Below are positions 5,307 to 61,300 of a stretch of DNA of 64,000 bases, in pieces. Location: assembly GCA_000004985.1 (NCBI GenBank), contig GG738845.1. One strand, given 5' to 3'. Below the pieces are notes generated by a model, which saw nothing but the letters and a program-made list of their open reading frames with translations, was not told the origin of the DNA and searched no databases. This DNA is from Naegleria gruberi. Its lineage: Eukaryota. Each line of letters begins with the position of its first letter. Within the stretch, counting starts at the first letter, position 1. The position numbers and the translations under genes were made by a program.

Positions 5307-6658
5307 TTAATCTTGTTTCCTTAATTTATGAACAACACCTTCGAGTAATGCATCAATATAGTTCAATACAACAAAAATACCAGCACATACAGCCATCAAG
5401 TCAACAATGAAATGAGTGAATGGCATACCATTTTCTTCATAGGTAATTCTGATAGGTTCAAAATTGTAAACAAAAAAGACACCTGGAAGCATCATCATCT
5501 TGGAACTATCAAATGGCATGACGTGTTTTGTGAAGGAGAATTGATAGGTATTAATAGTACTGGAGAAGTATGAGGAACCAATGTATGTTGTTGGAACAGC
5601 CTTAATGAAATATTTGAAAAGAGCTGTCTTTGGAGCTTGAGCATCACTTTCCTCAATCTTTGGAATGATACCAACAGTTTCATCGAGTGGATAAGTAACA
5701 TGTGGAATTCTCAAACCAAATGAAAGTGAGTGAATAATATGAGTACTATTGTATCTATCAACGAGAATTGGATTAAATTCGTGAATGTGATGAACTCTGG
5801 TTTCATATTCTTGAGAGAATGAACGTCCAGGAAGGAAGTGGAAATTACCATTCACCTTTTGTACATCCAATGTACCATAAATGTTACATCCAGGATGATT
5901 CTTAGAAGCATCAAATAAACATTGTTCAACATCCTCAACTCGTGGAGCTGGCAATCCATTTCTCTTATAAACTTCCATAACATCTTGGCAAGTATTACAA
6001 CATTCCCCTCTTCTTTGCTCAACATAACAGGTGCCACAATACATAATACTATGTGGATCTTTTGTTGGATCGTACTTATCTTGTGGCATTTCAGTTCCGA
6101 GTTTTGTTTTATGTTTTGGTGATTCCAAATGAGTAATTCTTCCTGATGAATCGACTGGAACTTTATGAATGTGGTGAGCAACATCAATGGCAGCATCTCC
6201 ACTAGCATCAACAGAATCCACATGAAGATCGTAACATTTTAAATCAGGGAATGAAATATTAAAGAAAATAACAACTCTATCCTCAACTTGAATATCAACA
6301 GAGAGTGTATCCCGTCTGTTAATACTAAGATATCGGATCAAGGCTGATCCAACAAGAAAAATTATAATAATGAGAGCCAGAATAGAAACTATTACGATCA
6401 TCACTATTACTGTATAGTATATTTTAACTTACCAACACCACCCAATGAAGTTTTCTTTGTTGCTATGGAATCTGTTTTTGAATACAAATCAAATGATCGT
6501 ATACTTTTCATAATTTTACTCTTCATTTCCGTTTTGGATTTAATTTCGCTAGCATAGTTTGATGATGAATAGCTATCGGATGTTCCAGGTCGTCTTCTAA
6601 GACCATCATTAGGATTTCCACCATATGAATAGTTGGGTGTTGATGATGGTTGGAACAT
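5307..6658 (-). CDS. ERGIC3/Erv46-family ER-Golgi cargo receptor. Two exons on the minus strand, about 6658..6433 and 6409..5307
   Basis: The upstream ORF encodes the N-terminal ...IRSFDLYSKT... (FDAYPKT-like) motif. A 23-nt intron (GTAAGTTAAAATATACTATACAG, phase 1) joins it to ...GGV-VIVMIVIVSILALIIII..., which is transmembrane helix 1. Exon 2 has the ERGIC_N and COPII-coated ERV domains, including the CNTC cysteine cluster, a C-terminal transmembrane helix and a KLRKQD tail. The true start Met may be internal (MKSKIMKSIRSFD). Confidence 0.75.
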
Positions 6659-11726: not shown

Positions 11727-13007
11727 ATGAAGAATACTGCCAGACTTGTTTTGAAGAATTCCTTCAAGCCATCATGTAGATCATTCTCTACTTGCCAAAT
11801 GCAACAAGGTATTTGGGCAGGAGTTAATTATGCTCCTCTCGATGCTATTAAACAATTGACAATTAGTTTTAATCAAGACACTGCACCAAACAAGATTCTC
11901 TTGGGTGAAGGTGTCTATCGTACCAATGAAGGTAAGCCAAAGACACTCCCTTCCGTTAGAGAAGCTGAAAAGATCATCTTTGAAAAGGGTCTCGATCACG
12001 AATATCCACCAGTTACAGGAGTTGTTGATTTCTGCAAGGCAACTCAAAAATTCGCCTTTGGTGAAAACAGTGATAGAATTGCAACTGTTCAATCCATTTC
12101 TGGTACTGGTAGCTTGTGTTTGGCAGCTTGTTATATTAAGAAATTCCTCCCAGCCGACACTAAAGTTTACTTCCCAAATCCAACTTGGGTCAATCACTTT
12201 AACATTTTCCGTGCTCAAGGATTCACTGATGATCGTATCCCAACTTATAGATATTTTGACAAGAAGACTAATGGTATGGATGTTCAAGGTGCTTTAGAAG
12301 ACATTAAGAATGCTCCAGCCAAGTCAGTCATTCTCTTGCACGCTTGTGCTCACAACCCAACTGGTGTTGATCCAACAATGGATACTTGGAAGAAGATTTC
12401 CGATATCTGTAAGGAAAAGCAACACTATGTTTTGTTCGATTCTGCTTATCAAGCTTTTGCTTCTGGTGATGCTAACACTGATGCTCAATCATTCCGTTTG
12501 TTCGTTAAGGAAGGTCATCAAATCATGCTCTGTCAATCATATGCCAAGAACTTTGGTTTGTACGGACAACGTATTGGTGCTTTCAATGTTGTGACTGAAA
12601 ATGCTGAAGAAAAGAAGAATGTTGAAAGTCAACTTGGTATTATCATTCGTACTCAATACAGTAATCCACCTTTGCACGGTGCTAGATTGGTCACAACTGT
12701 TTTGAATACACCAGAATTGAAGGCTCAATGGGAAAAGGATGTTAAGGAATTGGCTGACAGAATTAAATTGATGAGAGCTAAATTGGTTGAAGAATTGAAG
12801 AAGGTCGGAAGCACTCGTGACTGGTCACACATTACCAACCAAATTGGTATGTTCGCCTTCAGTGGTTTGAATGAACAACAAGTTACCAAATTGAAGGAAG
12901 AATACCACATCTACATGACTAAGGACGGTAGAATTAGTATTAGTGGTTTGAACACTAACAATGTTGCTACTGTTGCTAAGGCCATGCACGAAGTTACTAA
13001 GAACTAA
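11727..13007 (+). CDS. Aspartate aminotransferase, mitochondrial-type (GOT2-like)
   Basis: 426-aa ORF. The N-terminus has a presequence-like stretch (MKNTARLVLKNSFKPSCRSFS). AAT class-I signatures are present (ILLGEGVYRTNEGKPKTLPSVREAE; SQSYAKNFGLYGQRIGAF; YSNPPLHGARLV). Confidence 0.9.
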   Translation: MKNTARLVLKNSFKPSCRSFSTCQMQQGIWAGVNYAPLDAIKQLTISFNQDTAPNKILLGEGVYRTNEGKPKTLPSVREAEKIIFEKGLDHEYPPVTGVVDFCKATQKFAFGENSDRIATVQSISGTGSLCLAACYIKKFLPADTKVYFPNPTWVNHFNIFRAQGFTDDRIPTYRYFDKKTNGMDVQGALEDIKNAPAKSVILLHACAHNPTGVDPTMDTWKKISDICKEKQHYVLFDSAYQAFASGDANTDAQSFRLFVKEGHQIMLCQSYAKNFGLYGQRIGAFNVVTENAEEKKNVESQLGIIIRTQYSNPPLHGARLVTTVLNTPELKAQWEKDVKELADRIKLMRAKLVEELKKVGSTRDWSHITNQIGMFAFSGLNEQQVTKLKEEYHIYMTKDGRISISGLNTNNVATVAKAMHEVTKN

Positions 13008-15712: not shown

Positions 15713-17546
15713 TTATTGAGTTGGGTAAAAGGAAGGCATTTTCAAAGTGTATGGAACTTTATACTTTTCACACAGGAGACTTGTTACAATTCTGGCAGAT
15801 TCCATGATAGTAGGAAGTCCTGAACCTGGGTGCGTATGACCTCCAGATAAATAGAGATTATCGAGTTCGTCGAATTTGTTTCTAGGTCTAAAAGATAAAC
15901 TCTGGAATAGAGTATTACTCATTGCAAATACTGCTCCAAATTCTATATTCTTCTCACTCTTCCATGTTAATGGTGTTGAAAGTTTACAATCCTCAATATG
16001 ATTTCTCAAATTGGTAAATCCACATTTTTGTTCCAAAATATCAAAGGCAAGTTGCTTGGTCTTTTCAATAGTTTGTTGATCTGTCCAGTCAATTTTGCCA
16101 ACCTGTAAATTTGGAACAAATACCATTACAAATAAACCTGATTTGCCTTCCTTTGATACAGTTTTATCGACAGTACATGAATTTCTTACATAAACACAAA
16201 TATCAGAATTCCAATCTCCATCCTCCATTAATTTGTAACTCTTCTTAATATCTTTAGGGAATGAAATTACATGTGTTGTCACATTATCATATAATTTATC
16301 CAAAGAAAGATACATATTAAATCCACTACAACTAAATTTCTTCTTGTCAAACGTAGATGGTTTCCATGTAGAAAATATTTGATCAGCATTTGGAATATTA
16401 TTCCTTATTACATAGGGTATATCAGCGTTGCAAATAATTTCGTCAAATTCATATCTTGTTGTTTGTTGTGAATTTCCATGTCTCACTTCAATGCTATTAA
16501 TTAAACGTGAACCCTTCTCAATATTGAGCTTTTCTACAGTTGAATCGAGATGAATCTTTGCACCAAATTCATTGGTTAGAATGTTGGCCATTTGTTCTGA
16601 AATTTTAGAAAGTCCACTAATTTTTTGTCAAATTATGACACATCAGACAAAACTATATTACTTACCCCTCGACATGGTATATGCCAAATTGATACTCAGC
16701 ATAGGGTATGAGACCATAAACAGATGGAGCCTGCCATGGACTCATTCCTAAATATTTAGCCTGATATGAAAGGATTATTTGATTCATTGGATTTTTAAAA
16801 TACCTTCTCAACATGGTTGCCATTGATTTATGTAAACCAACATACGGAAGTGCTTTGATAGCATCCCAATTAATAATATCCAAATGTGAAGAATAAATCT
16901 TTTCCAATAATTTCATAGTATAGGGATACCTCTTTTCTTCAAATTTAAGCCACTCATGAAATCCCTTCACAGCATCCTTTCCAAAAACTCTATCAATTTC
17001 ACTCTCCAATGCTTGTCGATGGTCCAAATCGTGACAATCAATGTGAGTCCCATCATGAAAAACAAGTCTATACATGGGATCCAATCGAATAAATTTCAAA
17101 TAATCATCAACATTCCTTCCAGCATCTCTAAAAACAGCTTCCAATATAAATTTCATTATTAACAAGGTTGGTCCTGTATCAAGTGTACTTTCTCCAACTT
17201 GGAGTGGAGCATTTCTACCACCAATCTTGCTTCCTTTTTCAAAAACAGTCACTGGAAAACCCTTTGATGCCAAAATGAGAGCACTAGACAAACCTCCTGG
17301 TCCACCTCCAATAATACCAATACTTGGTTTTCCATTTGTCTTGTTATGATTGGTTGAAGTGTTGATGGATGAATAGTATCGAATGATCGGAGTAGTGAAA
17401 TTATTACTCAATGAATGAAACATTTGAAGGAGACCAACAACCCCTTTACTAGTAGTAGTGTTTGATGAATACTCGGACTCTAAACAACAGCATCCTCTCT
17501 TAGGATTGTTAACAAACAAAGTGGATCTGATTGTTCTCTTTAACAT
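15713..17546 (-). CDS. FAD-dependent oxidoreductase of the phytoene-desaturase (CrtI)/PYROXD2-like family. Two exons, about 17546..16666 and 16616..15713
   Basis: N-terminal dinucleotide-binding motif (IGIIGGGPGGLSSALILASKG...FEKGSKIGGR). A 49-nt intron (GTAAGT...AAAAATTAG, phase 2) restores ...YHVEGGGLSKISEQMANIL (the G-x-W-x-P-x-GG region). The C-terminus has YLSGGHTHPGSGLPT, typical of the CrtI family. The N-terminus may act as a targeting peptide. Confidence 0.6.
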
Positions 17547-17627
17547 TTTTTTTTAATTGATTTTCATCCTTGAACTTAATTGTTGCTATTGGAATTAAAG
17601 CCAAGACTTGTCTTTGAAGAAAAAAAA

Positions 17628-18656
17628 ATGCTCAACAATAGGTTTGATCAAAACCAACCACTCAAACATCGTTCCGTTACAAGTTTGGCGGGAAATTCTT
17701 CCATGCTGCCAACAATACCATCATCGTCAACAACAACAGGAGGATTCTCTATGAATAAGTCTAAATTATTGCCAGTTTCACTGACACATCAAACAAGTAC
17801 TTCTTATTCTGATCAAACTTTTGGAAAGGAAGAAAGAATCAATGAACGATTATTGTCATCATCATTATATAGAAAAAGCGATTTAATTCCGAGCGAGCAA
17901 AATAATATTATTGATACAGAAGTACCACCAGCAGAAAGTATTTTGGATGATGGCGAACCAACAAGATTGACAAAAAGTCTTGCTGCTCATTCTTCTTTTA
18001 TTTTCGGTGGCAAGCCTAGAGATGAAGGAATAATTACAGATTTTATGATGACACCACTATCAATCAAAAACTTGGACAGGAAGAGAAATTTCTCAACACC
18101 AGGTACATTGGAACAATCTGTACTAAAGAGAGGAGTCTTTACATCACCATTGCGAACTGATCCATTCTTTGAAGTTGATGATGACAAGCTTAAAAGTAAT
18201 ATTAATGATATTGTAAAGGAAACAACTTGGGTGACAGTATTTGGATTCCCTCCAAGTAAGGCCTCTTACATTCTCAGACAATTTTCAAATTATGGAATGA
18301 TTATTAATCACAAGATTATGAATGGAAACTTTATGCATATTCAATACAAAGCCAGAATTCAAGCTGATAAAGCTCTAAGCAAAAATGGAAAAGTCTTCGA
18401 TGGAGTTTTAATGGTGGGTGTAGTAGAATGTTTAGATACTGAAATTTTGAGACAATACGAGAAGGAAAAGCGATTGGTTGAAGAAAAATCAAGCAAAAAA
18501 AGAAATATCTCGTCTATATCCAATGATGATGATATTCAATTTAATGGTGGAATCTCATATCGTCATAAATTGGAACTACCACTAGAAAAGAAGAGAAAGC
18601 CAGAGTCTTCGAATTCTTTCTTTTCCAAACTTTTTGATTACGTTTTTAAATTCTAA
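17628..18656 (+). CDS. Nucleoporin Nup35/Nup53 family
   Basis: The C-terminal half contains the RRM-like MPPN domain, near-collinear with metazoan NUP35 (WVTVFGFPPSKASYILRQFSNYGMIINHKIMNGNFMHIQYKARIQADKALSKNGKVFDGVLMVGVVEC). The likely start is the ATG of MLNNRFDQ. Confidence 0.75.
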   Translation: MLNNRFDQNQPLKHRSVTSLAGNSSMLPTIPSSSTTTGGFSMNKSKLLPVSLTHQTSTSYSDQTFGKEERINERLLSSSLYRKSDLIPSEQNNIIDTEVPPAESILDDGEPTRLTKSLAAHSSFIFGGKPRDEGIITDFMMTPLSIKNLDRKRNFSTPGTLEQSVLKRGVFTSPLRTDPFFEVDDDKLKSNINDIVKETTWVTVFGFPPSKASYILRQFSNYGMIINHKIMNGNFMHIQYKARIQADKALSKNGKVFDGVLMVGVVECLDTEILRQYEKEKRLVEEKSSKKRNISSISNDDDIQFNGGISYRHKLELPLEKKRKPESSNSFFSKLFDYVFKF

Positions 18657-18665
18657 TACAATTCT

Positions 18666-21600
18666 TTATTGTTGTGGTATTGTCTTTAAACTTTCCATTG
18701 TTGTTTCAATAATACTCTTCTTGGTTACAAGGTCTTTAACGCTAGAGGATTTTCTTTGCTTGGCCAATTCTAATTCTTCTCTCTTTGAGGAAACAATCTT
18801 CTTTGATTGATCAAATCTATTTCTAGCCTTTTCTAAATTTTGTTTGATTTCCTTTTCTCTTTTTGTTGCTCTTTCAAGGGAGTTTTTGGCTGCTATTACT
18901 TTCTTGTCTTCAACTACAACAGAATTGTTTGAAACAATAGCATTGGATTGAATAGATTGCTTTGGAGTCTTTTGTAAGTTCAAATCCTTTTGGTTGGCAA
19001 CATCGGCTGGTGTTTCTTGCTTTGCTGAATTTCCCTTTGTCAAGAATTCCAAAAACTTTTCTCTTATTTGGTTCTTTTTCTTGTCCATTTCTTCTCTCAT
19101 GAGCTTTTCTCTGAGAATATATTCCATTCTTCTTCTTTCCTCTTCCATAAAGAATGGTTGCATTGGAGAGCTAAGAACTGGAGAACCAACAACAAGTTGG
19201 GCACCAACAATACCAGAATTTTTTCTACACTTGGATTGCTTCTTTTGGTGTTTCTTGTGTGGTTTCTTCTTTTGAGACTTGGAAATGCTCTTGATAAGCT
19301 TTCTGAGCTTGCAATATGTGCATTTCTTCTTACCTCTCTTTACCTTCTTTGGCTTTTTGTGATGCTTCTTATCTTTCTTAGAACCAGTTGTAATTCTTGT
19401 TTCAATGTTAACAACTCCAATATTACCAGAAACGTTAGTGCTTGTTTGGATTGCAGCTTGTCCTGGTTGAGGATTTGGTTGCACAGGTGGTTGCACAGTT
19501 GGTTGTGCTGGTTGTGCTGTTGGAGGGGTTGATTGTTCCTTATTAACAACATTAGAGTTTGCATTGGCGATTTGTTCAACAATTTTTCTGTACCATTCCT
19601 CTCCACACAATGGATTAAGAGATTCATCTTCAGGTGTAGAACATGAGCTTCTTGGTACACCAATTTCTCCCATAATTGAATCCAATCTCTCAAGATCGCT
19701 TTCTTCAGCCAACATTGGATCTGCACTTACAATAGCTTCAGCCAATTCTCCATATTCAGCGGAAGTTAATGGTTCAACTTCCTTTCCTTCTTTAGCGTCA
19801 GTGAATTCAGTACAGTATGGATTGGCAAGAAGTTCTTCCAAAGTAGAGCACTTTGTTACCTTTGCCACACTATCAGATTTAATTTGGACTGGCTTAACTG
19901 GATCGACTGATTTAGTGTCCTTATTGACTTGCTTTTTGTCCTTCTTAGTATCTGACTTCTTTCCCTTGTTAGCCTTCTTATCAGATTTGGTGTCTTTCTT
20001 GAGATCTTTCTTGTTATCTGATTTCTTTCCCTTATTGTCGGATTTTTTATCCTTCTTATCAGACTTGGTGTCTTTCTTGAGATCCTTCTTGATTGGTTTG
20101 ACTGATTGAGAATTATTAGCATTGGTACCCTTGTTGTCTTTAGACTTTTTATCATTATTGGTTTGCTTGTTAATTGGTTTGATTGGCTTGTTTTCCTTCT
20201 TGTTAACATTCTTATCAGATTTGGTGTCCTTCTTGAGATCCTTCTTGTTAACTGATTTCTTTCCCTTATTGTCGGATTTTTTATCCTTCTTATCAGATTT
20301 GGTGTCTTTCTTGATGTCTGATTTCTTTCCCTTATTGTCAGATTTGGTGTCTTTCTTGGTATCTGATTTCTTTCCCTTGTTGTCCTTGTTGTCCTTGTTG
20401 TCAGATTTGGTATCCTTCTTATCTGATTTGTTGTCCTTCTTGATATCCTTATTGGTTTGCTTATTAATTGGTTTGACGTTCTTGTTATCCTTCTTGTTAA
20501 CCTTCTTATCGGATTTGGTGTCTTTCTTGAGATCCTTCTTGTTATCTGACTTCTTTCCCTTAATGTCTGTATTGTCAGATCTTTTTGGCTGTCTTTCTTG
20601 GTATCTGATTTCTTTCCCTTGTTGTCAGATTTGGAACCCTTCTTATCAGATTTGTTGTCCTTCTTGATATCCTTATTGGTTTGCTTATTAATTGGTTTGA
20701 CGTTCTTGTTATCCTTCTTGTTGTCCTTCTTATCAGATTTGGTACCCTTCTTGAGGTCGTTCTTCTTGTGTGATTTCTTGGTATCCTTCTTAGCAGACTT
20801 GGTCTTATCCTTCTTAGTATCTGACTTCTTTCCCTTGTTAGCCTTCTTATCATATTTGGTGTCTTTCTTGAGATCCTTCTTGTTTTCTGATTTCTTTCCC
20901 CTATTGTCGGATTTGTTATCCTTCTTATCAGATTTGGTATCTGATTTCTTTTCCTTGTTGTCAGACTTTTCTTTCTTTGATTCAGTTTTCTTTTCTTCTG
21001 ACTTCTTTGGTTGTTCTGTCTTTGATTCAGTCTTCTCATCTCCAGTATTTGGGACTGCAGTTTGGATGTCTGTCTTTGGAGTAATATTGTCTTCAGATTT
21101 CTTGCCAATAGCTTGCTTATTTGAGGTTTGAGTCTGGGTAACAATTTCAATACCATTAGCATTTTGAGCACTTGAACTAGACATCATTGTTTTTTCAACA
21201 CCATTGTCAACCTTTGCAGATTGTTTCTTGGATTCATTTGAAACATTAGAGATTGCTGGTTTAATATCAGTCTTGGAATCAGCTGTAGAAGCCTTGCTGT
21301 CATTTGCAGTGGATGATGGCTTGACTTCAGTCTTGGTGTCACTCTTGGAAGGGATATCCATCTTTCTATACCATTGTTCTTTGCACAAAGGATGAGTGTA
21401 ATAACTATCCAAAGATCCACATACATGATCTCTTCCAGAGCTGAGCTTTGAATTAATGGCATACTTTTGTTGTTCGTTTGGACCATAGCTGAGAGATTTG
21501 ACATTCAAAACATTGCAATCACCATCTACATTGAGCTTGCACTTCAAAACATTACCAGAACTAATTGGCTTTTGATTTGGAAGTTCAACTGCAGTTTTCT

Positions 21601-22270
21601 TATCAGATGGAGTAACAACTGCAACGCCAGCCTTCTTTTCAACTTCCTTTGTTGTAATAGTGTTGGCACTATCAGTCTTTGGTTGTTCCTTTCCAGTATT
21701 TGAGTCAAGAATCGTTTTTTTATCAGTAGACTGAGTATTCATTGTTGGAACAGAATTAGTACCGGTAACAACAACTGGAGCGGTTTGAGTTGGAGTGGTT
21801 GTTTGACTGCTTGGAGTAGTTGTTGGTGTTTGAGTAGAGGTTGTTGTGGAGGCAGTACTACCTTGTGTTGTACTGGTTGGAGTGGTCGCAAGAGGAGTGT
21901 TGGTTGTTGAGGGAGTTGTAGTAGTGGTTGGCTTACTAGTCTCTCCTTGTTCCAAAACAACTCTTCTGTATTGCATCTTTCTGTACCATCTCTCCTTACA
22001 CAATGGGTTAGAGTAATAGCCAGAAACTGTGCTACACTTGATGGACTTGCTGCCTGTTGAAGAACGATATTTTGGTATTTCCTTGGGATCATAGGAAAGG
22101 GCCAACTCATCAAGATAAGACACAACACTACAGTCACCATTTCTATTGAGAGTGCAACCTAGGGCCTTATCGCTGCTTCCTTGAGCGAGAGTTTGGGTCA
22201 TTAAAAAGATGACCAAAACAACAAGGGTTGTTAGTTGGGCAAGCTTGCTTTTTAACAACTTTGATTGCAT
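18666..22270 (-). CDS. Secreted, mucin-like, lysine-rich tandem-repeat protein with a repeated 4-Cys module. Probably one gene spanning ORFs 19856..22270 and 18666..19868, interrupted by a frame change at about 20580
   Basis: N-terminal signal peptide (MQSKLLKSKLAQLTTLVVLVIFLMTQTLAQG). Two copies of a roughly 65-aa Cys module ending in YYxxPLCKExWYRKM, a Thr-rich linker, and a second Thr/Ser stretch. The next roughly 1.1 kb is KSDNKGKKSDTKKD-type repeats. The K-rich frame is minus frame 2 above about 20582 and minus frame 0 below it. I checked that frame 0 is open with no stops from 20624 down to the stop at 18666. Downstream come a third PLCGEEWYRK motif, a Q/P-rich and basic stretch, and a coiled-coil tail. 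The frame change coincides with a variant repeat carrying +5 nt (gtcagatCTTTTTGGCTgtctttc instead of gtcagatTTGGTgtctttc). Confidence 0.55.
19880..21000 (-). repeat. Coding tandem repeat array of imperfect 42-45 nt units encoding K/S/D/N/T-rich peptide repeats
   Basis: Visible periodicity on the plus strand (cttcttatcagatttggtgtctttcttga...gatttctttcccttattgtc...). The same DNA yields long spurious ORFs on the opposite strand and in shifted frames (LSDLVSFLRSFL... and RRISRKTPN... translations). Confidence 0.8.
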
Positions 22271-22491
22271 TTTTTTTTAAGGATGAACTGTCCACTACAG
22301 TCCAAGTATCGTGAGAGCATCCAGCTGAAGCATCCCTAGTGTTAAATCGTTTTAAAAATAAAATTTATACACAAGCCAAACCTTCCATTAAGATAAACAG
22401 TTTTGTGCTTTCTTTGCATCTCTATTGTATAGTTGGGTGACCACAGAATCAGGTAACAGTACTTTAACAGCGCACAACATCATCTATTAAT

Positions 22492-25400
22492 TTATTGGAA
22501 TAGTCTTCTATTAAGATTTTCCAACAAGTATCTTGGATAGATGGGGGTGCCATTTACAAGAACTGGTGAACGTTGAGGAATGATAGAAGGTTGAGATGGT
22601 GGTTGAATGATTGGAAGTGTTGGTGGTTGAACGGTGGGTCTTTGAATTGGTATTTGAATCCTAGGAATGGATGGCATTTGTGGAGGTAGGATATTTTGTG
22701 TTATAGGGGGAGGAGGAGTTTGAACAGTTGGGATAGGAATCGTTGGAATAATTGGAGTAACGATTGGAGGAGGTTGACTTGGAGTAAAAACCGGTGGATG
22801 TTTCTTTTCAACTTGTTTTGGTTGACTTGGAGGTAACATCTTAATGATAGGAAAAGGATCAGAAGTATAGACAAAATTAGAGAGTGATTCCGGAAGCATC
22901 CATACACCTTTCCAGAAACTTCTTTGTAGAAATCTCTCAGGACTATTATTGAACTCTAAAACAGACCTGGTATAGTGAGGATTATTTGATCTATCGAGTT
23001 GCATCTTGAGGTAGAGTAATTGTAAATCTTTGAAACTTCCGTTCCATGGTACTTCAGGAAACACTGGAGTAGAAGGATGGTTAACCATATTGTCGGATTC
23101 TAACTGTGATCGATTGATATCGAATACTTTCAATGTCAACTTTTCATACTCTCCCTTTTCATTTGCTGTTGTATCAAGTTGTAAGGCATTATCGTCCTTC
23201 AAGTAGTGAGGTGAGACTAGTAATGTAGCTGATTGCTCTGACTTTTCTCTCCATTCTTTAAGCCTTTTAGTCATTGATTCTTCGAATAGTCTTTGGAAAT
23301 ATGTTAATTGGCCAAAGGTAAAGTAATCTAATGGAGATTTTTGTATAATTCCAAACAACGGATCTTCCTTACTCTCCTCCACAGTAATAATATTATTAGT
23401 ATTGTCTGCTGATTTTTTGGAGAATTTTTTCACTATAGCCAACCTCTCCTTCTTGAATAATTTTTGAATATCATGTTGGTGAGATACTATTGAATAGACT
23501 TCATCTTTTGTGAGCTCATTCTTAAAAATATCATGTAGCAGTTTATCCTGTAGAGCTGGATCCGAGTTGTCTAGTTGATTTACCATAATGGATTGAGTAT
23601 AGTTTTCGTAATTATATACCTCTCTAAGTTTTTTTTCATTAGCATCAAGCTTTCTATGCTTTGATAGGAGTTTGGTCTTGTATCTTTGATCAATTCCATT
23701 CTTTTGAATGAATGCTCTTGTTATAACTCGAATTTGATTGTTTTCTTTTTGGTAAGATTCCAATAAAAGTTTAGCTAGCTCAGTGTTGTAATTTTTTGAT
23801 TCTATTGACTTTTTGGAAAGGGCTGTAGAGATGAAAGAGAAGGTTTCTGCGAACTGGGCACTTTGCATCATTCTTAACACAGAGTTGACAACGTTTTCAT
23901 ACGATTCGATTTTGGATTGTTTTCTAAACTCCTTCTCGAATGATATTTTTTCTTTTAGAGTCAATGATTGCCACTCCTTCATTGATGAATCCTTTCTTAC
24001 CATTTGATTATAGTAGGACCTTAGTTTTGAATAGTTTTTGATAGCATCCTGGTGCAATTGTATGATAGAATTTTCAGTACCATTTGGCTTGTAGGAAAGA
24101 ACTTCTCTCCTTTGTTCCCTATTCATTTGGTCGAGTAATTGATCAAGTATTCTGAACTCTCTGTCAATGATTAAATCTCTTTCCAATTCTAGCAAATCTT
24201 GGGTATTCTCCTTGTTTTGTTTTGCTGGTATATTGAGCAATTTGACAGATTGTTGAAAAATTCCTAAACTTTCCAATTTAGATTGTTCGAGTGGTGATAT
24301 TGTGTCGGTATAAATTACATTTTCGAGGCGCTTTCTCTCCTCTTCCAGTTTCTGCTTTAAAGTTTGAAGAGACTTTTTCTCTTCTTCACTTGGCTCGATG
24401 CCTGACAGAGATTTGGTGGCAATATTACTTTCTATTTGTACAACTGTCTGTTCTAGATGAAGTAAGGATATTTTATCAAAGCGTTGCTCTTGTATTTCAC
24501 TAACTCTAGGTAGTATGTTTTTTTGAATCTCTATGGTTTTCATTGTTGGATAAAACAACTTGTTAGCATTAAAATTATCAGGCATATTGGCAAGTTTAGA
24601 GAATTCATTAAATGACTGGTTTAGGCAATCATTTCTTATAGAGTTAATCTCCTTCGCAACATCCAATCCTTTAGAGAGTTGAATTAACTCTCCCTCTTTC
24701 CAAACATTCTCATCAACGGAAAAAGTATTGGAGAGGTAATGAGTTGATGTTGTAGAATTGTTATTCTCCATAATATTTTCACTCACATGTGTCTGAATCA
24801 AAGTATTTTCCTTCTGATTTTGCTCTGATTTCTGTTGAAGGGATTTTTTCCCTTCATTAATAAATGAAAAACTATTATTGAATGTATTTTCTTCCAGTGC
24901 TGAATGTTTAGAATCCTCCCTAACTAATTCATGGTAATATTGTTTGTGGTCTTTTTTCGAGAAGGATTTAGGAGATTTTTCAGTTGAGGTGCTGGAATTA
25001 GTCTTGAAAAATAGGTTTGCTATTTTGCGCGTTTCCATTAGTGCATATTTGGTGGAAATATGACTCTTCTCTACAAGATAAGAATATAATTCACCAAGTT
25101 TGAAAGAGTAGGGAGAAACTTCTGCATTCTCATCTTCGTTTAGTTTGGTACCAAGGGTCCAATCATATTTGTTTCCATCACTTGGGGACACACCAAAAAA
25201 TTTAAATCCAATAGTCGACTTTAGAATGCCATTCTTCAAGTGCTTATACTTATCCGTAAGTGGTGCGAAAATAGGTAATTTCAGCTTGAATAAAGAAGAG
25301 TCTAATCTTGTGATTGGAAGACTTGTTAATTCGTCCAAATTACTCCACTTGGTATCAGACTTGGTTACTTTTTGGAGAGCTCCCAATGAAGATAATTCTC

Positions 25401-26676
25401 GATTTTCAATTTTGGGAGTACTATTTTTCACAGAAAATCCCTTTTCTTCAATCTGCTTTTTGACATCTTTCATTTCTTCATAAGCGTTCTTATTATTTCC
25501 AAAATCTAACGTATTAGATAAACCATTCTTCCAAGAATTTACAGTAATGTTTGCATTTTCATATGTATTCTCTAAGAGGATATCTTTTGAAACAGGCTCT
25601 TCAACAAGCTGAGGTTTAGGTATATTGAACTGATCACTTGGTATTTCAAGTACTCTTGGAGTCTCTGAGTGAGTATTATACACCTCTAATCTTTTCCCAA
25701 TATCCCCAACTAATTCTTCTAATTCTTTCCACTGATCTTCACTCAGATCTTCTAATATGTTTTGGGGTTCCATTTTTTTGGAAGAATCTTTCAAATAGTT
25801 GACAAGATTTTCTATCCACTTGAACTCCTCCTTATTGGTGGCATTAACAAGTTTGATTTCGAGATTCCTCATTTCGTTTTCTATTGCTGTTTTTCTTTCC
25901 TCTAGAGTTGCATCCATAAAGAGACCAGACTCTAGCAGGTAAATAGGAGAAAAATGGTCAACTAGTAAGCTTTCCGCATAACCTGTAGTTCCATATAATA
26001 GCTTTAAAGCCTTTAGTTTGGCAAGAGCATTTCTCTTCTTGTTTCCTGGAATGTTGGTATTAGAAATGTTTGACTTGTTGCCTTCTGCCCATCTAACTTT
26101 CGCAGAGTTCTTTTCATTACTTATTGGGTACAATTCTTTCAAATAATCCGCTTCAGAGCTATCTGTAAGATTTTTTCCAGTATCTGTTTTGAGCTCAAGA
26201 TTATTCTTATCAAGAATGATTTTCCTAATGTAATTTTTAAAATGGATCCAACTCTCTTCTGACATGTCAATACCAAAGAATGTCTCTATTTTTTGTTTTG
26301 TATTGGATATTTGGGAAACAGCCCTTAAAGAGCCTCCATTTTCCAAGTCCCCACCAACTATTATATCTTTCAAGTGTTCATAAAAATTAGTTCCCTCATG
26401 ATACTTATCTATATGTTTTGAGGTAGAGTACACTCTATGAGATTTAGTTATTATTTTTTGCTTGTCTGTTGAAGCAGTAGTTCCATTGGTGGTGCCAGAT
26501 GTGTAATTGCAAATCAATACATCTTTTATGTAGGGGTTGAAAGATTTGGAATTATCTTCCTCATCTGAAGAGTCTCCATTGTTGTTGAGTAAATAGGAAT
26601 CATTGGAAAATTCAGAAACTAAACTTTCCTTGTTTTGAATCTTGTTGATAGATGCTGCTGGTACAATACAGTTCAA
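22492..26676 (-). CDS. Large hypothetical protein of 1394 aa with a proline-rich C-terminal tail
   Basis: Uninterrupted ORF. The last roughly 100 aa are PP/PxxP-rich (PPVFTPSQPPPIVTPIIPTIPIPTVQTPPPP...). No family recognised. It may be continuous with the adjacent ORF at 26708..27334. Confidence 0.5.
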   Translation of the reverse strand: MNCIVPAASINKIQNKESLVSEFSNDSYLLNNNGDSSDEEDNSKSFNPYIKDVLICNYTSGTTNGTTASTDKQKIITKSHRVYSTSKHIDKYHEGTNFYEHLKDIIVGGDLENGGSLRAVSQISNTKQKIETFFGIDMSEESWIHFKNYIRKIILDKNNLELKTDTGKNLTDSSEADYLKELYPISNEKNSAKVRWAEGNKSNISNTNIPGNKKRNALAKLKALKLLYGTTGYAESLLVDHFSPIYLLESGLFMDATLEERKTAIENEMRNLEIKLVNATNKEEFKWIENLVNYLKDSSKKMEPQNILEDLSEDQWKELEELVGDIGKRLEVYNTHSETPRVLEIPSDQFNIPKPQLVEEPVSKDILLENTYENANITVNSWKNGLSNTLDFGNNKNAYEEMKDVKKQIEEKGFSVKNSTPKIENRELSSLGALQKVTKSDTKWSNLDELTSLPITRLDSSLFKLKLPIFAPLTDKYKHLKNGILKSTIGFKFFGVSPSDGNKYDWTLGTKLNEDENAEVSPYSFKLGELYSYLVEKSHISTKYALMETRKIANLFFKTNSSTSTEKSPKSFSKKDHKQYYHELVREDSKHSALEENTFNNSFSFINEGKKSLQQKSEQNQKENTLIQTHVSENIMENNNSTTSTHYLSNTFSVDENVWKEGELIQLSKGLDVAKEINSIRNDCLNQSFNEFSKLANMPDNFNANKLFYPTMKTIEIQKNILPRVSEIQEQRFDKISLLHLEQTVVQIESNIATKSLSGIEPSEEEKKSLQTLKQKLEEERKRLENVIYTDTISPLEQSKLESLGIFQQSVKLLNIPAKQNKENTQDLLELERDLIIDREFRILDQLLDQMNREQRREVLSYKPNGTENSIIQLHQDAIKNYSKLRSYYNQMVRKDSSMKEWQSLTLKEKISFEKEFRKQSKIESYENVVNSVLRMMQSAQFAETFSFISTALSKKSIESKNYNTELAKLLLESYQKENNQIRVITRAFIQKNGIDQRYKTKLLSKHRKLDANEKKLREVYNYENYTQSIMVNQLDNSDPALQDKLLHDIFKNELTKDEVYSIVSHQHDIQKLFKKERLAIVKKFSKKSADNTNNIITVEESKEDPLFGIIQKSPLDYFTFGQLTYFQRLFEESMTKRLKEWREKSEQSATLLVSPHYLKDDNALQLDTTANEKGEYEKLTLKVFDINRSQLESDNMVNHPSTPVFPEVPWNGSFKDLQLLYLKMQLDRSNNPHYTRSVLEFNNSPERFLQRSFWKGVWMLPESLSNFVYTSDPFPIIKMLPPSQPKQVEKKHPPVFTPSQPPPIVTPIIPTIPIPTVQTPPPPITQNILPPQMPSIPRIQIPIQRPTVQPPTLPIIQPPSQPSIIPQRSPVLVNGTPIYPRYLLENLNRRLFQ

Positions 26677-55931: not shown

Positions 55932-58367
55932 ATGGAAACATTCATCAGGCATTTTGTTCATCAATCCTTGTCCTTCCATCTTCATGAAAATGCAATTTTT
56001 CTATGTGAAAGATTGTTTGCGGAAAGCCCATCAATCCCTCACCTGTTATTGATGGCCCAAACATATTTTGAGTCGGGACAATATAGTGTTGCTTATCACT
56101 TGCTAAAATTTCATTCTTCAAAATGGGATGTTCCCTTTAGAACCAACACTTTATCATCGGATCCAGAATTGTCAAAAAGTTTCTTTGATTTTATGGATCC
56201 ACAAGAAAGTATCTTTTATTTATTTTCTTTATGTTGTATTAAATTGGAACACTACAGTGATGCTGAAAGATATTTGAGGAAATGTCACGAACATAATGAA
56301 AATAACGCTATTATTAATTATTGGCTTGGAATAGTCTACAAGTTGACTTGTAGAAAAGAGTTGGCAATTTATCACTTCCATAGAAGTGTCACTCTTTGTC
56401 CAATGTTATGGACTGCCTACGAACAACTAACCCAACTAGGATATGACAAAGTAGAATCGGATGGATTGTTTGATTCCAACAAGGCCACTTCACTTTTTGA
56501 AAGATTTTCTCAAATGTATTCTAATTTAACTGGAAACCAACCAAATAGTCTTACCAATATTCCTTTGATGCCCAATTTTAATTTTACTCCAATGCAAAAC
56601 ACAGGCACTGAATTTAATTCTAATCCACTTATTGATCGTGACACAATTATGGATCAGCCATTTATTCAACTTTCAAATGATCATGCAGGAATTTCATCTA
56701 CCCCAAGCAAATCAAAGTAAGTTTCGAATTTTATTTAATTGTAAGAATATTATGATTTTAGATCAGGAAATGACTTGATAAGCTCCAATATAATCAATAC
56801 ATCCACTGCTAAAACACCAAACATCTCATCAACTAAAAGCAAAACTAGAACTAGTATAGGAAGTGCTTCAAGAAGTAGTTTAGGAAATGATCTACTCAAT
56901 AGCACTTCAACACAACAAACTCCAAATTCATTCTTCTATAGAACTCCTTCTCCTCAACAGTCTCCTTCCTCAATTATTAATCACCCACCAGTGTTAGCTC
57001 AAAAACCAAAACCTCCAAGAAAGAGCCAAACCATCACTGGAGTCACAACAAAGAAAATATCATTCGACTCTGCCGATAAAAAGCTAGGAAGATCAAGTAT
57101 TACAAGCTCGAGTAGCGAGTCAGAAGAATCTCCATTCCTTCTCTATCCAACCCAAACATCTCATTCCTTCTCTAAAAATTACAGAGCATCTCCACAAAGA
57201 CCATACCAAAGAGATTCTCTGCCTAATCAACCAGAATTAATTTTGAGTGCAACAACACCTCTTCCATCAATTCCTTTGGATCCAAGTTCTGTATCATTCC
57301 CTTCCTTCAGCACATGGCAGTCAACATTTTCATTTAATTATAAGAAAGTTACTGTAAATGATGTAAGGGCAATACTCTCCCTCCTTTATGCACATGCCAT
57401 ACCATACAAATTCTTTTCCCAATACAAAGGAAAGGAAGCCATAGAGGCTTTCGAAAGACTTCCTCCAAAACATTATCAAAGTGGGTGGACGTTACAACAT
57501 GTGGGAAGATCTCATTTCGAGATGGCTCAATATGAAGATGCAGAAACTGCATTCGAAAAGATACAAATGAATGAGCCATACAGATTGGAAGGATTGGAAA
57601 TATACAGCACCATATTGTGGCACTTGAAAAAAGATAAGAAGCTCAGTTATCTTGCTCAACATATGAGTGAAATTGATAAAATGGCACCACAAACATTGTG
57701 TGCCATCGGTAACTGTTTCAGTCAACAAAAGGACCATGAGACAGCCTTAAAATTCTTCGAACGAGCTACAAAAGTTAATAATCTTTTCACCTATGCCTAT
57801 ACATTAGCTGGCCATGAAAGAGCTGCAAATGATGATTTGGATGGTGCATTACAATGCTATAGACATGCAATTAGAATAGATGACAGACATTATAATGCAT
57901 GGTATGGTATTGGCACAGTTTACTTTAGACAGGAAAAGTATCAATTGGCTATGTATCATTTCTCCAAAGCCATCAGTATTAATTCTAAGAGTTCAGTACT
58001 CTATTGTTATGCGGGTATGGCAGAAGCTGCCTGTAATCACTTTGAGTCAGCAATTAAAATGTTCACTTGTGCCATCAAGATTCATCCACAAAACCCAATG
58101 CCCAAATTTAAGAAAGCTAATGCCCTCATATCACTCCAAAAGTATAACGAAGCACTGGAAGAATTGAAAGAACTGAAGCATATGGTTCCAAAAGAATCTC
58201 AAATTTACTTTACATGTGGTAAAATTTATGCCTCCAGAAAGCAGAAAGACCTGGCTTTGTATGAGTTTAATATTGCTCTCGATTTAGATGGCTCTAAAGA
58301 AAATCCTCTCATTAAAGAAGCTATTGCAAAGCTCTATGAGATGGATGATGAAAAACTTGAAGAATAA
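55932..58367 (+). CDS. CDC27: Anaphase-promoting complex subunit CDC27/APC3. Two exons, about 55932..56718 and 56763..58367
   Basis: N-terminal TPR region. A 44-nt intron (GTAAGT...GATTTTAG, phase 2) joins ...PSKSK to SGNDLISSNIINTS. The C-terminal 330 aa are near-collinear with metazoan CDC27 TPRs (YNAWYGIGTVYFRQEKYQLAMYHFSKAISINSKSSVLYCYAGMAE...NPMPKFKKANALISLQKYNEALEELKELKHMVPKESQIYFTCGKIYA...LALYEFNIALDLD). A TTTGGCGCCAAAA palindrome lies at 55892..55904, 28 bp upstream of the ATG. Confidence 0.85.
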
Positions 58368-58390: not shown

Positions 58391-61300
58391 CTAATGCACT
58401 TCTTCTGCTGTTTCATCTGAAAATCCTAGTAATTTTTCTGCAAACTCAACTGAGGTAAATCGCTCTTCCAAAGAAGCAACCGTCACAGTGTCTTTGAGTA
58501 ATTTACAGAGGCAATCATTGAGTTCATTTTCACTCATTCTTTCGCCCATCGTTTTAAGTTTTTGGAACAAATCAGTTTTGTTGATGAAACCAGTGATTGG
58601 TTCACTGCCTAGCTTGATAAATGCTTCCTCAATATCCTTTCTCTGAATTCCAAATACTGGTCTGTGATTTACATAAATTTTCACAAATGCATTGAAATCG
58701 ATGAAAATTTCGGGTTCCTTCTTTGATTTTTTCTCAAGGTTGGAAGAACTGTTCTCAGCTGGGTCCCCAACACCCTTAATGACTCTCAATTCATAAATCA
58801 TATTTTGAATTTCCCATTGGGTTGCATAAAATCCTAAAGAACGAACTAGATCTGGCATTTGATTAATTGGTACACTGCCTGTGATTTTTCTTTCACTGGT
58901 AGTAATCTCGCCTTGACTTCTAATCTGGGCATAGTAGAAATATTGTTGAACCTCTTGGAAAAATTCACCTTCTTCTCCTCCTTCAATCAAACTCACATAT
59001 GGTGCAATACCCTCATCAACTTGCCTGTTTCTATCGAGTGGCGTACCAATAATCTTCCATTGGTTGACCATACAATCCGATCCTCCAGCAGTGAACAAGT
59101 ATTTACCATCTGGAGACACAACTGAGGCTGTGATTTCTCCAGCATGAGCAACCAACCCCATATGATGCTTTGGATTGCCATCTAAAGGTAATGCAATTAA
59201 TCCAATTACTTTTTCATGTGTAGAGTAGCACATGTATTTTGGTGGTCGAAGTTCTGGCAACAAGGAAGAGGATTCCTTAACATAATTTGGAACTATCATT
59301 AGTCTATTGAGAGGTCCTCCATATGTTGGGCTGAGAATTGTTCTATTACACCTGGTGTCTCTGTGGCCATAAGGTGTTATGAAGGAAGTTATCTTGTATT
59401 GGTCATTGGCAAATAGAATACCATCGAAATACTTCTTCTCATTTGGATAAGTTTCAATTACGTTTTCATCTCTTGACCATAAAAATGCTGTTGGAACTGC
59501 ATCTTGACTGATTCTGTGGATTGTTTTGACTTTAATGCCTCCTTGAATTGAGCTGCTTTCTAAATCGTACTCAATCAGTCTTCTGTCTTCTGACACCGAC
59601 ATTAATCTAGGAATGTCACCATATGGTTCAATTCCAAACTCCAATCCTGTAATTGCTCTCTTATGAGATTTATATCTACCCAAATACATCCATTCATCCT
59701 TTCCCATACCTTTCTTTTGTGGATTTGGCATGAACTTGAAAATACCAACACAGCTGATTGTTTGATTATCAAAGAATATTGTTAGATAAATGACTTACTA
59801 ATCAGTATCATAAAATGCTAAAAACAAGGAATCGTGAGAAAATTTTAGGGATTGGATACATGCTTTGGATGGTCTATAACCAAAATGAACTATTTCAGTA
59901 AAAAGTACTGCATCGAAAAATTTTACATAACCATTCGAACATCCAACAGCCAAATATTCACCTCTATTGTCAAATGCCAAACTTGAAATATATAATCCTT
60001 TTAGAACCAGAACTTTAAGAACCTCCTTCAGTTGATAATCCCAAATGTGTACATAGCCTGAAAGGCCAGATATTGCAATGTATGGTTTTGTTGGATGCAC
60101 AGCTAATGTTTGAATTGATTCATTTTGACTAGTAACAATAATTCGACCCTTCATACCATCAACATCATAATCGTGAAAGGAAGATGATTTAGCCTTTGCA
60201 ATAAAACCAGACTTGGTTTGAATCATAAAGTCTGGACTGTAGAAATCCCTCTTGATAGGACCATCCGTTGATTCAATAGTGCTCTTTTCCTTTGTTGCTT
60301 TATCAAACGAAATGGAAATGATAGATCCAAGATTAAAGTCCTCAAACCATGCCTCTAATCGCAGTTTGTGATCTAAAAATTTAACAAATCCATCACTGCC
60401 TCCACTTACAATGAAAGGTCCAGAACATGTAATGTAGTTAACACTGTACCCTGTATGAATTCTATCGATCCTTAATAAGAAAATGTTATTAATTACTTAC
60501 TTGACCACTTTCATTGCTTCCTTTTCAATTTCCTTTGCTTCTCTGTCTGGGAAAATCTTCCTCTCCCAAAGAACAATTTCACCATCAGAAGTTCCTGAGG
60601 CTGCCATAGTTGTATTATCTACAAAAGTTGTTTGAATAAATTCACTTGATGCCTGCCTAAAGTCGCTTTTTGCTGTGCTAGGACAAAAATATTCTAAGGA
60701 ATTGTTGTCTTCATGATTTTCCCAAAACACAACAGATTTTGGACCGCTAGTCAAAAAAATTGTTGGATTGGCAAAATGGCAAGTTAGAGAAGTCTGAAGC
60801 TCATTATTAGGGACCAAGGAGGAAACTTTGGCACCTTCTAAATCTTCAGTCCATTCCCAAACTGAAACCTGTTGCTCCCCTTCCTCATTAGGTCTACTAA
60901 CGCTGTAAATTAACATAGAGTCGCAAGAAATGTCCACTGACTCAATTCCAACCGGATGAGGGTCAAAAATTGTTTTGACTGGAATACCCTTATAACTATC
61001 CCAAATGACAATCATATTTTCCTTTCCACTATCTGCAGTTACAATCCATTTCTTGTCCCTACTGACTGCACAGCATGTTATCATGTTTGTCTATTTTTAA
61101 TTGAATAATAATTTTACATTCATTTTCAATCAATTCGTATTCCTTACAAAAACTTACATGACCTTGAAGTAATATTTGTTCCTTTGACTCGTATCTGAAA
61201 ATTATTCCAACATTTCCTGCAACATAAAATACCTCCTTTCTGTAATCGTCACATAAATTGTGCATGCCTCCCAAAATGTCCTTATTCATTCCAAAAATCC

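Follow-up and report, generated by a model that had tools for sequence, protein, structure and literature searches.

Does a 64,000-nucleotide (nt) stretch of the Naegleria gruberi genome (contig GG738845.1; hereafter, the window) carry two genes on its minus strand between positions 22270 and 18666, or a single gene for a lysine-rich repeat protein whose reading frame has been broken, and, if a single gene, what broke it? The upstream open reading frame (ORF) begins with an ATG at 22270 and ends with a stop at 19858–19856, giving 804 aa. The downstream ORF begins with a GTG at 19868, opens with the residues MAKVTKC and ends at 18668–18666, giving 400 aa, and the two overlap by 13 nt. An initial annotation had proposed that both belong to one secreted protein of roughly 1200 aa, split by a frameshift within a tandem repeat. 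Five independent lines of evidence support a single gene model of about 1200 aa, and it is very probable that the two ORFs are one gene interrupted by a non-programmed frameshift at the DNA level. The features on which the argument first depends are:

18666–22270, minus strand: the whole gene, whose coding region spans about 1201 codons and is frameshifted at about 20581–20590 (both ORFs, three-frame translation, repaired product)
20625–20627, minus strand: last stop codon of the downstream frame, which is open from 20624 to 18669
19856–19858, minus strand: stop codon of the upstream frame (translation)

In a three-frame translation the lysine-rich text KSDNKGKKSDTKKD occupies the frame of the ATG at 22270 (first base 22300) as far as approximately position 20586, and below that point the lysine-rich text (SDNTDIKGKKSDNKKDLKKDTKSD) moves to the frame whose first base is 22298. 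The change is one base back (−1, equivalent to +2), and after it the upstream frame reads as the arginine-rich text LTIQTLRERSQITRRISRKTPN. The initial annotation had the lysine-rich pattern switching minus-strand frames at about 20582, in agreement with this result. Its further statements, that the lower frame is free of stops from 20624 to 18666 and runs into the MAKVTKC ORF, were likewise borne out: none of the 652 codons from 20624 to 18669 is a stop, compared with 67 of the 548 codons upstream, and the start of that ORF is the GTG at 19868.

Codon usage changes frame at the same place. Log-odds scores trained on the 23 other ORFs of the window were positive in the upstream frame from 22210 to 20770 (+0.2 to +0.66) and in the downstream frame from 20590 to the end (+0.13 to +0.68), where the upstream frame scored negative, and the switch fell between the scoring intervals starting at 20680 and 20590. 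Repeat spacing breaks there too. In three repeat families (D1, D2 and D3) found without gaps, spacings measured from start to start were multiples of three in 22 of 23 cases in D1, 7 of 8 in D2 and 2 of 3 in D3. The exceptional spacings of 116 nt (20482 to 20598), 59 nt (20464 to 20523) and 224 nt (20386 to 20610) are each 2 modulo 3. Both the 116- and the 224-nt steps connect a copy below the junction with a copy above it, and the 59-nt step lies between two 156-nt copies that both overlap the junction and share about 62% identity. The frame switch, which the initial annotation had assigned to one odd repeat unit, therefore coincides with the switch in codon usage and with the sole repeat spacings that are not multiples of three, a match that is far beyond chance.

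Variation among the repeat copies themselves identifies the frame under which they evolved. Two higher-order copies flank the junction:

20610–20779, minus strand: higher-order repeat copy 1, in the upstream frame, 89% identical to 20386–20555 at a start spacing of 224 nt
20386–20555, minus strand: higher-order repeat copy 2, lysine-rich in the downstream frame only (repeat comparison)

These 170-nt copies encode the same peptide, KKDNKNVKPINKQTNKDIKKDNKSDKK, only in different frames, and the spacing from copy 2 to the next copy (20092–20261) is 294 nt, again a multiple of three. Differences between copies fall at third positions of the lysine frame in 10 of 16, 12 of 18 and 17 of 34 cases, and this bias covers copy pairs that straddle the junction. 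Synonymous changes between copies account for 5 of 13 and 5 of 14 differences in the lysine frame and for none in the arginine-rich frame. Because of this pattern of third-position and synonymous change, we infer that the sequence past the junction evolved as coding sequence in the lysine frame.

The two ORFs also share a protein module with four cysteines and the signature PLC-x-E-x-WYRK. It occurs three times in the 64 kb, twice in the upstream ORF and once in the downstream ORF:

21962–22162, minus strand: 4-Cys module 1, C-x7-C ... C-x9-PLC-x-E-x-WYRK (alignment, motif scan)
21347–21547, minus strand: 4-Cys module 2, 48% identical to module 1 (motif scan)
19569–19871, minus strand: 4-Cys module 3 (BLASTP of the N-terminal part against the C-terminal part, alignment)

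Neither a motif scan nor tblastn found a further copy of this module elsewhere in the window. BLASTP of the N-terminal against the C-terminal part of the protein matched the modules with E values of 7e-6 and 8e-5, and the residues invariant in the alignment are C3, C11, C43, P53-L54-C55, E57 and W59-Y60-R61-K62. The downstream frame contains no in-frame ATG between 20624 and 19715; the ATG at 19715 lies inside module 3, and the GTG at 19868 stands four codons ahead of the first cysteine of that module. Finally, when one A is added to the A5 run at 20582–20586, the two ORFs become one of 1201 aa whose only stop is the terminal one and which reads ...KKDSQKRSDNTDIKGKK... at the junction. The earlier proposal of one protein of about 1200 aa in place of two thus agrees with all five lines: codon usage, repeat spacing, copy variation, the shared module and the missing ATG.

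The frame change lies within a single unit of the repeat array, whose relevant features are:

19899–21007, minus strand: tandem-repeat array rich in Lys, Asp, Asn and Ser, 370 aa (repeat scan and composition)
20581–20590, minus strand: frameshifting patch AGCCAAAAAG, where sister units have ACCAA, a net gain of 5 nt, with an A5 run at 20582–20586
20562–20570, minus strand: in-frame 9-nt extra ACAGACATT (T-D-I) beside the +5 patch, which also supplies the ACAG of a candidate splice acceptor discussed below

On the plus strand, positions 20574–20597 read GTCAGATCTTTTTGGCTGTCTTTC and the sister units read GTCAGATTTGGTGTCTTTC. On the coding strand the junction unit is GAAAGAC-AGCCAAAAAG-ATCTGAC and its sisters are GAAAGAC-ACCAA-ATCTGAC, the assembled junction sequence at the patch being AGCCAAAAAGATCT; this comparison reproduces the net +5 nt that had been noted in one repeat unit. 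The patch would be in frame again with one base more or two fewer. In total the odd unit is 14 nt longer than its closest sister. Of the 10-mers starting at positions 20598 to 20563, 34 of 36 are unique within the array (the exception is ATCTGACAAT), and 10-mers in the flanks of the unit recur 3 to 8 times in the array. Because the junction 10-mers are unique, the odd unit appears to be a diverged unit with its own history and not a misjoin of canonical units. In our alignment, the tail of higher-order copy 1 differs from its sister copy by in-frame deletions (−12 and −45) and by the +5 patch, which is the only frame-disturbing difference between the two tails.

Since the repeat text makes sense on either flank of the patch, the lesion need involve no more than a single event, and a single-base origin is what the comparison suggests. 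The simplest origin would be a short run that became one base shorter, either A6 to A5 at 20582–20586 or TT to T in GAT(T)CT, converting GAT TCT to GATCT. A 19-nt deletion (1 modulo 3) through ATCT microhomology, joining an N-K-K-D-L to a T-K-S-D-N unit, would fit the phase but requires three extra substitutions; we rejected it, and it stands as an idea only. As for simple-repeat phase variation, the lesion offers only the A5 run, and slippage-prone contingency tracts are typically longer than that. Just after the patch lies a perfect 7-nt inverted repeat, ATCTGAC/GTCAGAT (20574–20580 and 20544–20550, minus strand), which is the sole stem predicted in this region; each arm consists of normal codons of the repeat (S-D and K-S-D), and the fold is no better than that of shuffled sequences.

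Could the frame be restored by splicing or recoding, or could the two ORFs simply be two genes as they stand? The features that bear on restoration are:

20567–20637, minus strand: candidate frame-restoring GT..AG interval of 71 nt, judged not to be an intron (donor and composition)
20612–20618, minus strand: heptamer G GGA AAG, read in the upstream frame where the two open frames overlap (sequence scan)

Two separate genes would mean that the 804-aa protein with its arginine-rich tail is intended and that the downstream ORF is expressed alone. Both ORFs are indeed open as they stand, and the arginine-rich frame runs for 242 codons without a stop; that frame is open, however, because of its A/G-rich composition, its codon-usage scores are −0.2 to −0.7, and it shows no synonymous variation between copies. 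The downstream ORF, moreover, has no ATG before 19715, inside the Cys module, its product would lack a signal peptide for a module of disulfide type, and the 13-nt overlap leaves no room for a promoter. Codon usage, repeat spacing, copy variation, the shared module and the missing ATG all contradict a two-gene arrangement, and we regard it as highly unlikely. Much the same low probability attaches to a short spliceosomal intron that would remove the frameshift, a cause absent from the list in the initial annotation, the best candidate being the 71-nt interval, whose excision would give DKK|DIKGKK. Genes of the window do carry short introns: the six that we verified are 44–67 nt long, all with GTAAGT donors, 32–49% T and T-rich bodies, often with a TTGAC- or CTGAT-like motif 8–12 nt before the AG (2439–2485, 56717–56761 on the plus strand; 6389–6432, 16617–16665, 59754–59798, 61091–61157 on the minus strand), and they provide a usable local model of N. 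gruberi splice sites. The candidate has GT..AG ends and a length of 2 modulo 3, and its ACAG is preceded at 9 nt by CTGAC, a branch-like motif of the kind seen in real introns (TTGACAAAA..TAG). Its donor, GTTCCA, nevertheless matches GTAAGT at only 2 of 6 positions, its composition is 13% T and 49% A against the 32–49% T of the verified introns, and the interval is itself in-phase lysine-rich repeat with a sister copy (about 20390–20340) that is read as exon. There are 156 frame-restoring GT..AG pairs, with donor scores of at most 4 of 6, a number expected by chance because AG dinucleotides are so many in sequence of this composition. On its donor sequence and composition we rejected the intron as poorly supported.

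A programmed or tolerated −1 ribosomal slippage, either at G GGA AAG (20618–20612) or by a single tRNA at CAA AAA G (20588–20581), would allow some full-length protein to be made. The shift required is indeed −1. Just past the last stop of the downstream frame an X XXY YYZ heptamer stands in the correct frame, and the A5 run would let tRNA-Lys re-pair one base back. The heptamer is generic, however: it is unspecific to this site because it is part of every K-G-K unit, and AAGGGAAAGA occurs in eight copies in the array, three of them in frame upstream. Slippage there would leave the off-pattern patch EIRYQERQPKR, since the heptamer lies 30 nt ahead of the real phase change, at which point itself (CAA AAA GAT) there is no X XXY YYZ heptamer. 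A heptamer-final G is also a poor slippery context in eukaryotes. No stimulatory structure lies 5–9 nt past the heptamer; folds of 90 and 141 nt were at the level of shuffled sequences (minimum free energies of −7.7 and −12.4 kcal/mol, z = −0.97 and −1.23, respectively), and the only stem, 7 bp closing a loop of 23 nt, does not begin until 31 nt past the heptamer. Nothing marks a slippage site, because the upstream frame stays open for 242 codons, and no orthologues that might show conservation of the site were found in the protein collections searched. The −1 sites of luteoviruses and poleroviruses combine G GGA AAC with a pseudoknot 5–9 nt downstream. The present locus resembles them in needing a −1 shift and in having G GGA AAG in frame within the overlap, but it is without the downstream structure, its heptamer ends in G and recurs in each repeat unit 30 nt before the phase change, and the gene is cellular with no conserved relatives. 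With no structure and a generic heptamer, the initial judgement that a programmed frameshift is the less likely cause stands, and we consider slippage exceedingly improbable. Somewhat less remote, and still quite unlikely, is the broader possibility that the frameshift is real and full-length protein is made all the same, or that indels in the array turn the C-terminal part on and off. Full-length product could then arise by low-level −1 slippage on the A-rich message of lysine codons (at G GGA AAG or CAA AAA G) or by the splicing out of a newly 'intronized' 71-nt repeat piece (20637–20567), or out-of-frame array indels might, in a polyploid amoeba, leave the C-terminal half on in some haplotypes and off in others. 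The junction peptide of a full-length product made by recoding would read ...KKDSQKRSDNTDIK....

We thus return to one gene broken, as we propose, at the DNA level inside a single diverged unit of the array and not by any programmed device, and ask whether the break lies in the organism or in its assembly. To our knowledge, the Sanger-sequenced draft of strain NEG-M is the sole published N. gruberi genome. That draft is a scaffold-level assembly of 40.9 Mb with 35% GC, a scaffold N50 of 160 kb and 1,977 scaffolds, and heterozygosity has been described for the species (PMC9928731). We lean slightly toward a lesion that is real in NEG-M rather than an artefact, present in the organism and not only in the assembly. 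The NEG-M copy would then be a genuine frameshift allele, either evolutionarily very recent or specific to one haplotype, and if the frameshift is not bypassed its product would be an 804-aa protein that ends in a 242-residue, arginine-rich, out-of-frame nonsense tail and lacks module 3 and the C-terminus. The sensible repeat text on both sides of the patch, the unique junction 10-mers, the Sanger data and the described heterozygosity all count for a real lesion. The whole conjunction, one gene with a non-programmed frameshift that is a genuine NEG-M allele, has in our estimate an even chance.

Several observations weigh against that conjunction. No homologue in the collections searched confirms the full-length architecture; the odd unit differs from its sister in three places within 30 nt, a pattern that could also come from a mosaic consensus of two haplotypes; and the 652 downstream codons, with normal codon usage and third-position variation and no second lesion, are what a sequence error would equally predict. 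It is accordingly a substantial possibility, if the lesser one, that the same single gene carries its frameshift only in the NEG-M Sanger draft, as a one-base consensus error or as a mosaic of two haplotypes, and that the organism makes the 1201-aa protein. The mosaic, in which two haplotypes that differ in repeat structure were merged into one consensus, has to be taken seriously: on our reading the odd unit is like an N-K-K-D-L unit in its left half and like a T-K-S-D-N unit in its right half, as expected of a haplotype hybrid. A single added base restores sensible repeat, the assembly is a draft, and the lesion adjoins an A5 run within an array of such low complexity that read placement is difficult. 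Sanger sequencing rarely miscounts runs of 5–6 A, however, and the unique junction, with sensible coding sequence to either side, does not look like a stretch of low quality. Plain repeat collapse would delete a repeat length; all other spacings in the array are multiples of three and 34 of the 36 junction 10-mers are unique, and we consider a simple misjoin of this kind unlikely. The ranking of causes in the initial annotation was thus reasonable in placing programmed frameshifting last, while its repeat-collapse error, in the simple form, is weakened by the unique 10-mers. Public Nanopore, bisulfite/EM-seq and RNA-seq read sets for NEG-M exist (PMC12344493).

On the repaired reading, the remaining parts of the protein are:

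22181–22270, minus strand: hydrophobic, signal-peptide-like N-terminus MQSKLLKSKLAQLTTLVVLVIFLMTQTLAQ (top Kyte-Doolittle value over 19 residues 1.93, residues 10–28)
21776–21940, minus strand: mucin-like linker rich in Thr, Pro and Ser, SKPTTTTTPSTTNTPLATTPTSTT (translation)
19218–19379, minus strand: basic Lys/His cluster with four Cys, KKDKKHHKKPKKVKRGKKKCTYCKLRK...KCRKN (translation)
18669–19150, minus strand: charged C-terminal region rich in Glu, Lys and Arg (translation; codon-usage score positive to the end)

Lysine residues stand ahead of the N-terminal hydrophobic segment, and this segment is the whole basis for describing the protein as secreted; its hydrophobicity suggests secretion, which the earlier description had stated outright. 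The Thr/Pro/Ser linker may be O-glycosylated, to judge from its composition. The array, when repaired, is 39.5% Lys, 16.5% Asp, 11% Asn and 10% Ser, and it is built of units of 12–78 nt inside higher-order units of about 224–294 nt, with tandem periods of 9–78. A Gln/Pro-rich stretch follows module 3, and between the Lys/His cluster and the C-terminus lies a weakly hydrophobic stretch (1.13) that is too weak for a membrane span. The C-terminal region is probably helical or coiled-coil. As a whole the predicted protein looks like a secreted or surface-associated polycationic protein with a structural or adhesive role. AlphaFold2 applied to the Cys module with an alignment of three sequences gave a pLDDT of 47, too poor for fold comparison. 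Within module 3 the hexamer GTAAGT occurs in frame (19725–19730, minus strand, in …AIVSADP…); it is probably coding and there by chance, since the alignment to module 1 is gapless across this point.

The repeat protein is an orphan in the collections searched. When 5.8 billion clustered proteins were searched by word index, neither its C-terminal nor its N-terminal part had a match, or even a self-match, and a full phmmer search with the C-terminal part against 1.84 billion representatives likewise gave no match and no self-match. Pfam yielded nothing at E ≤ 1, and a scan of metagenome contigs found no relative. The self-match is missing for both halves although a neighbouring N. gruberi aspartate aminotransferase is present at 100%, and for this reason the published set of N. 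gruberi proteins seems to lack this locus. That neighbour is the ORF at 11727–13007, which is 100% identical to the NCBI N. gruberi aspartate aminotransferase and 87% and 75% identical to the proteins of N. fowleri and Willaertia, respectively; its identity places the window in the nuclear DNA of N. gruberi. By tblastn there was no relative at the aminotransferase locus of N. fowleri (VFQX01000012.1, 687674–708957), and no detectable relative was found in N. fowleri or Willaertia within the collections searched. The N. fowleri locus keeps an actin-related neighbour and otherwise differs, so that synteny is broken within about 5 kb. A literature search on lysine-rich Naegleria proteins returned nothing relevant.

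The spore-coat and prespore proteins of Dictyostelium combine Cys-rich modules with Thr/Pro repeats, a likeness that we take as a lead only. The present protein resembles such mucin-like or charged-repeat proteins of amoebae and other protists in its signal-like segment, Cys modules, Thr/Pro linker and charged repeat; it differs in that the searches above brought up neither a similar protein nor a Pfam family, that its 4-Cys PLC-E-WYRK module is without a match, and that its lysine content, 39.5% over 370 residues, is extreme. As a gene, the locus belongs to the familiar class of frameshift-interrupted genes (split models, unitary or allelic pseudogenes). Like other members of that class in draft eukaryotic assemblies, it consists of adjacent ORFs on the same strand across which coding signal, repeat phase and domains are continuous, and the downstream ORF is without a start of its own. 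It departs from them in that the lesion sits inside a coding tandem repeat whose composition holds the wrong frame open over 242 codons. Hence no premature stop follows close upon the lesion, and two large and plausible ORFs result.

The case is accordingly an ordinary problem of gene model, allele or sequence quality and involves no new mechanism; one would be implied only if the frameshift were both real and bypassed. In annotation the locus should appear neither as two genes nor as none, but as one, about 1201 codons long and marked as carrying a frameshift. A/G-rich coding repeats can hold a wrong frame open for hundreds of codons and so place two convincing false genes in an ORF track. 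The Naegleria repertoire gains an orphan, probably secreted and extremely lysine-rich protein with a previously undescribed 4-Cys module.

The surrounding window is 34% G+C and dense in long ORFs broken by short introns. Opposite the array lie three Ser/Leu/Phe-rich ORFs of 177–181 aa (19564–20109, 20122–20667 and 20598–21131, plus strand), which owe their openness solely to the composition of the repeat and will probably mislead gene tracks built on ORFs. Next to the 3′ end of the repeat gene, a Nup35/MPPN-like gene (17580–18656, plus strand) ends 10 nt from the repeat-gene stop at 18666; the stops being so close, the 3′ untranslated regions of the two genes must overlap. Farther along is a gene for a phytoene-desaturase-like FAD oxidoreductase (15713–17546, minus strand) with a 49-nt intron and a targeting-like N-terminal extension. 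The upstream neighbour of the repeat gene is an ORF of 1394 aa (22492–26676, minus strand), whose tail (22492–22800) is a stretch of about 100 residues rich in Pro, Ile and Gln, PPVFTPSQPPPIVTPIIPTIPIPTVQTPPPP.

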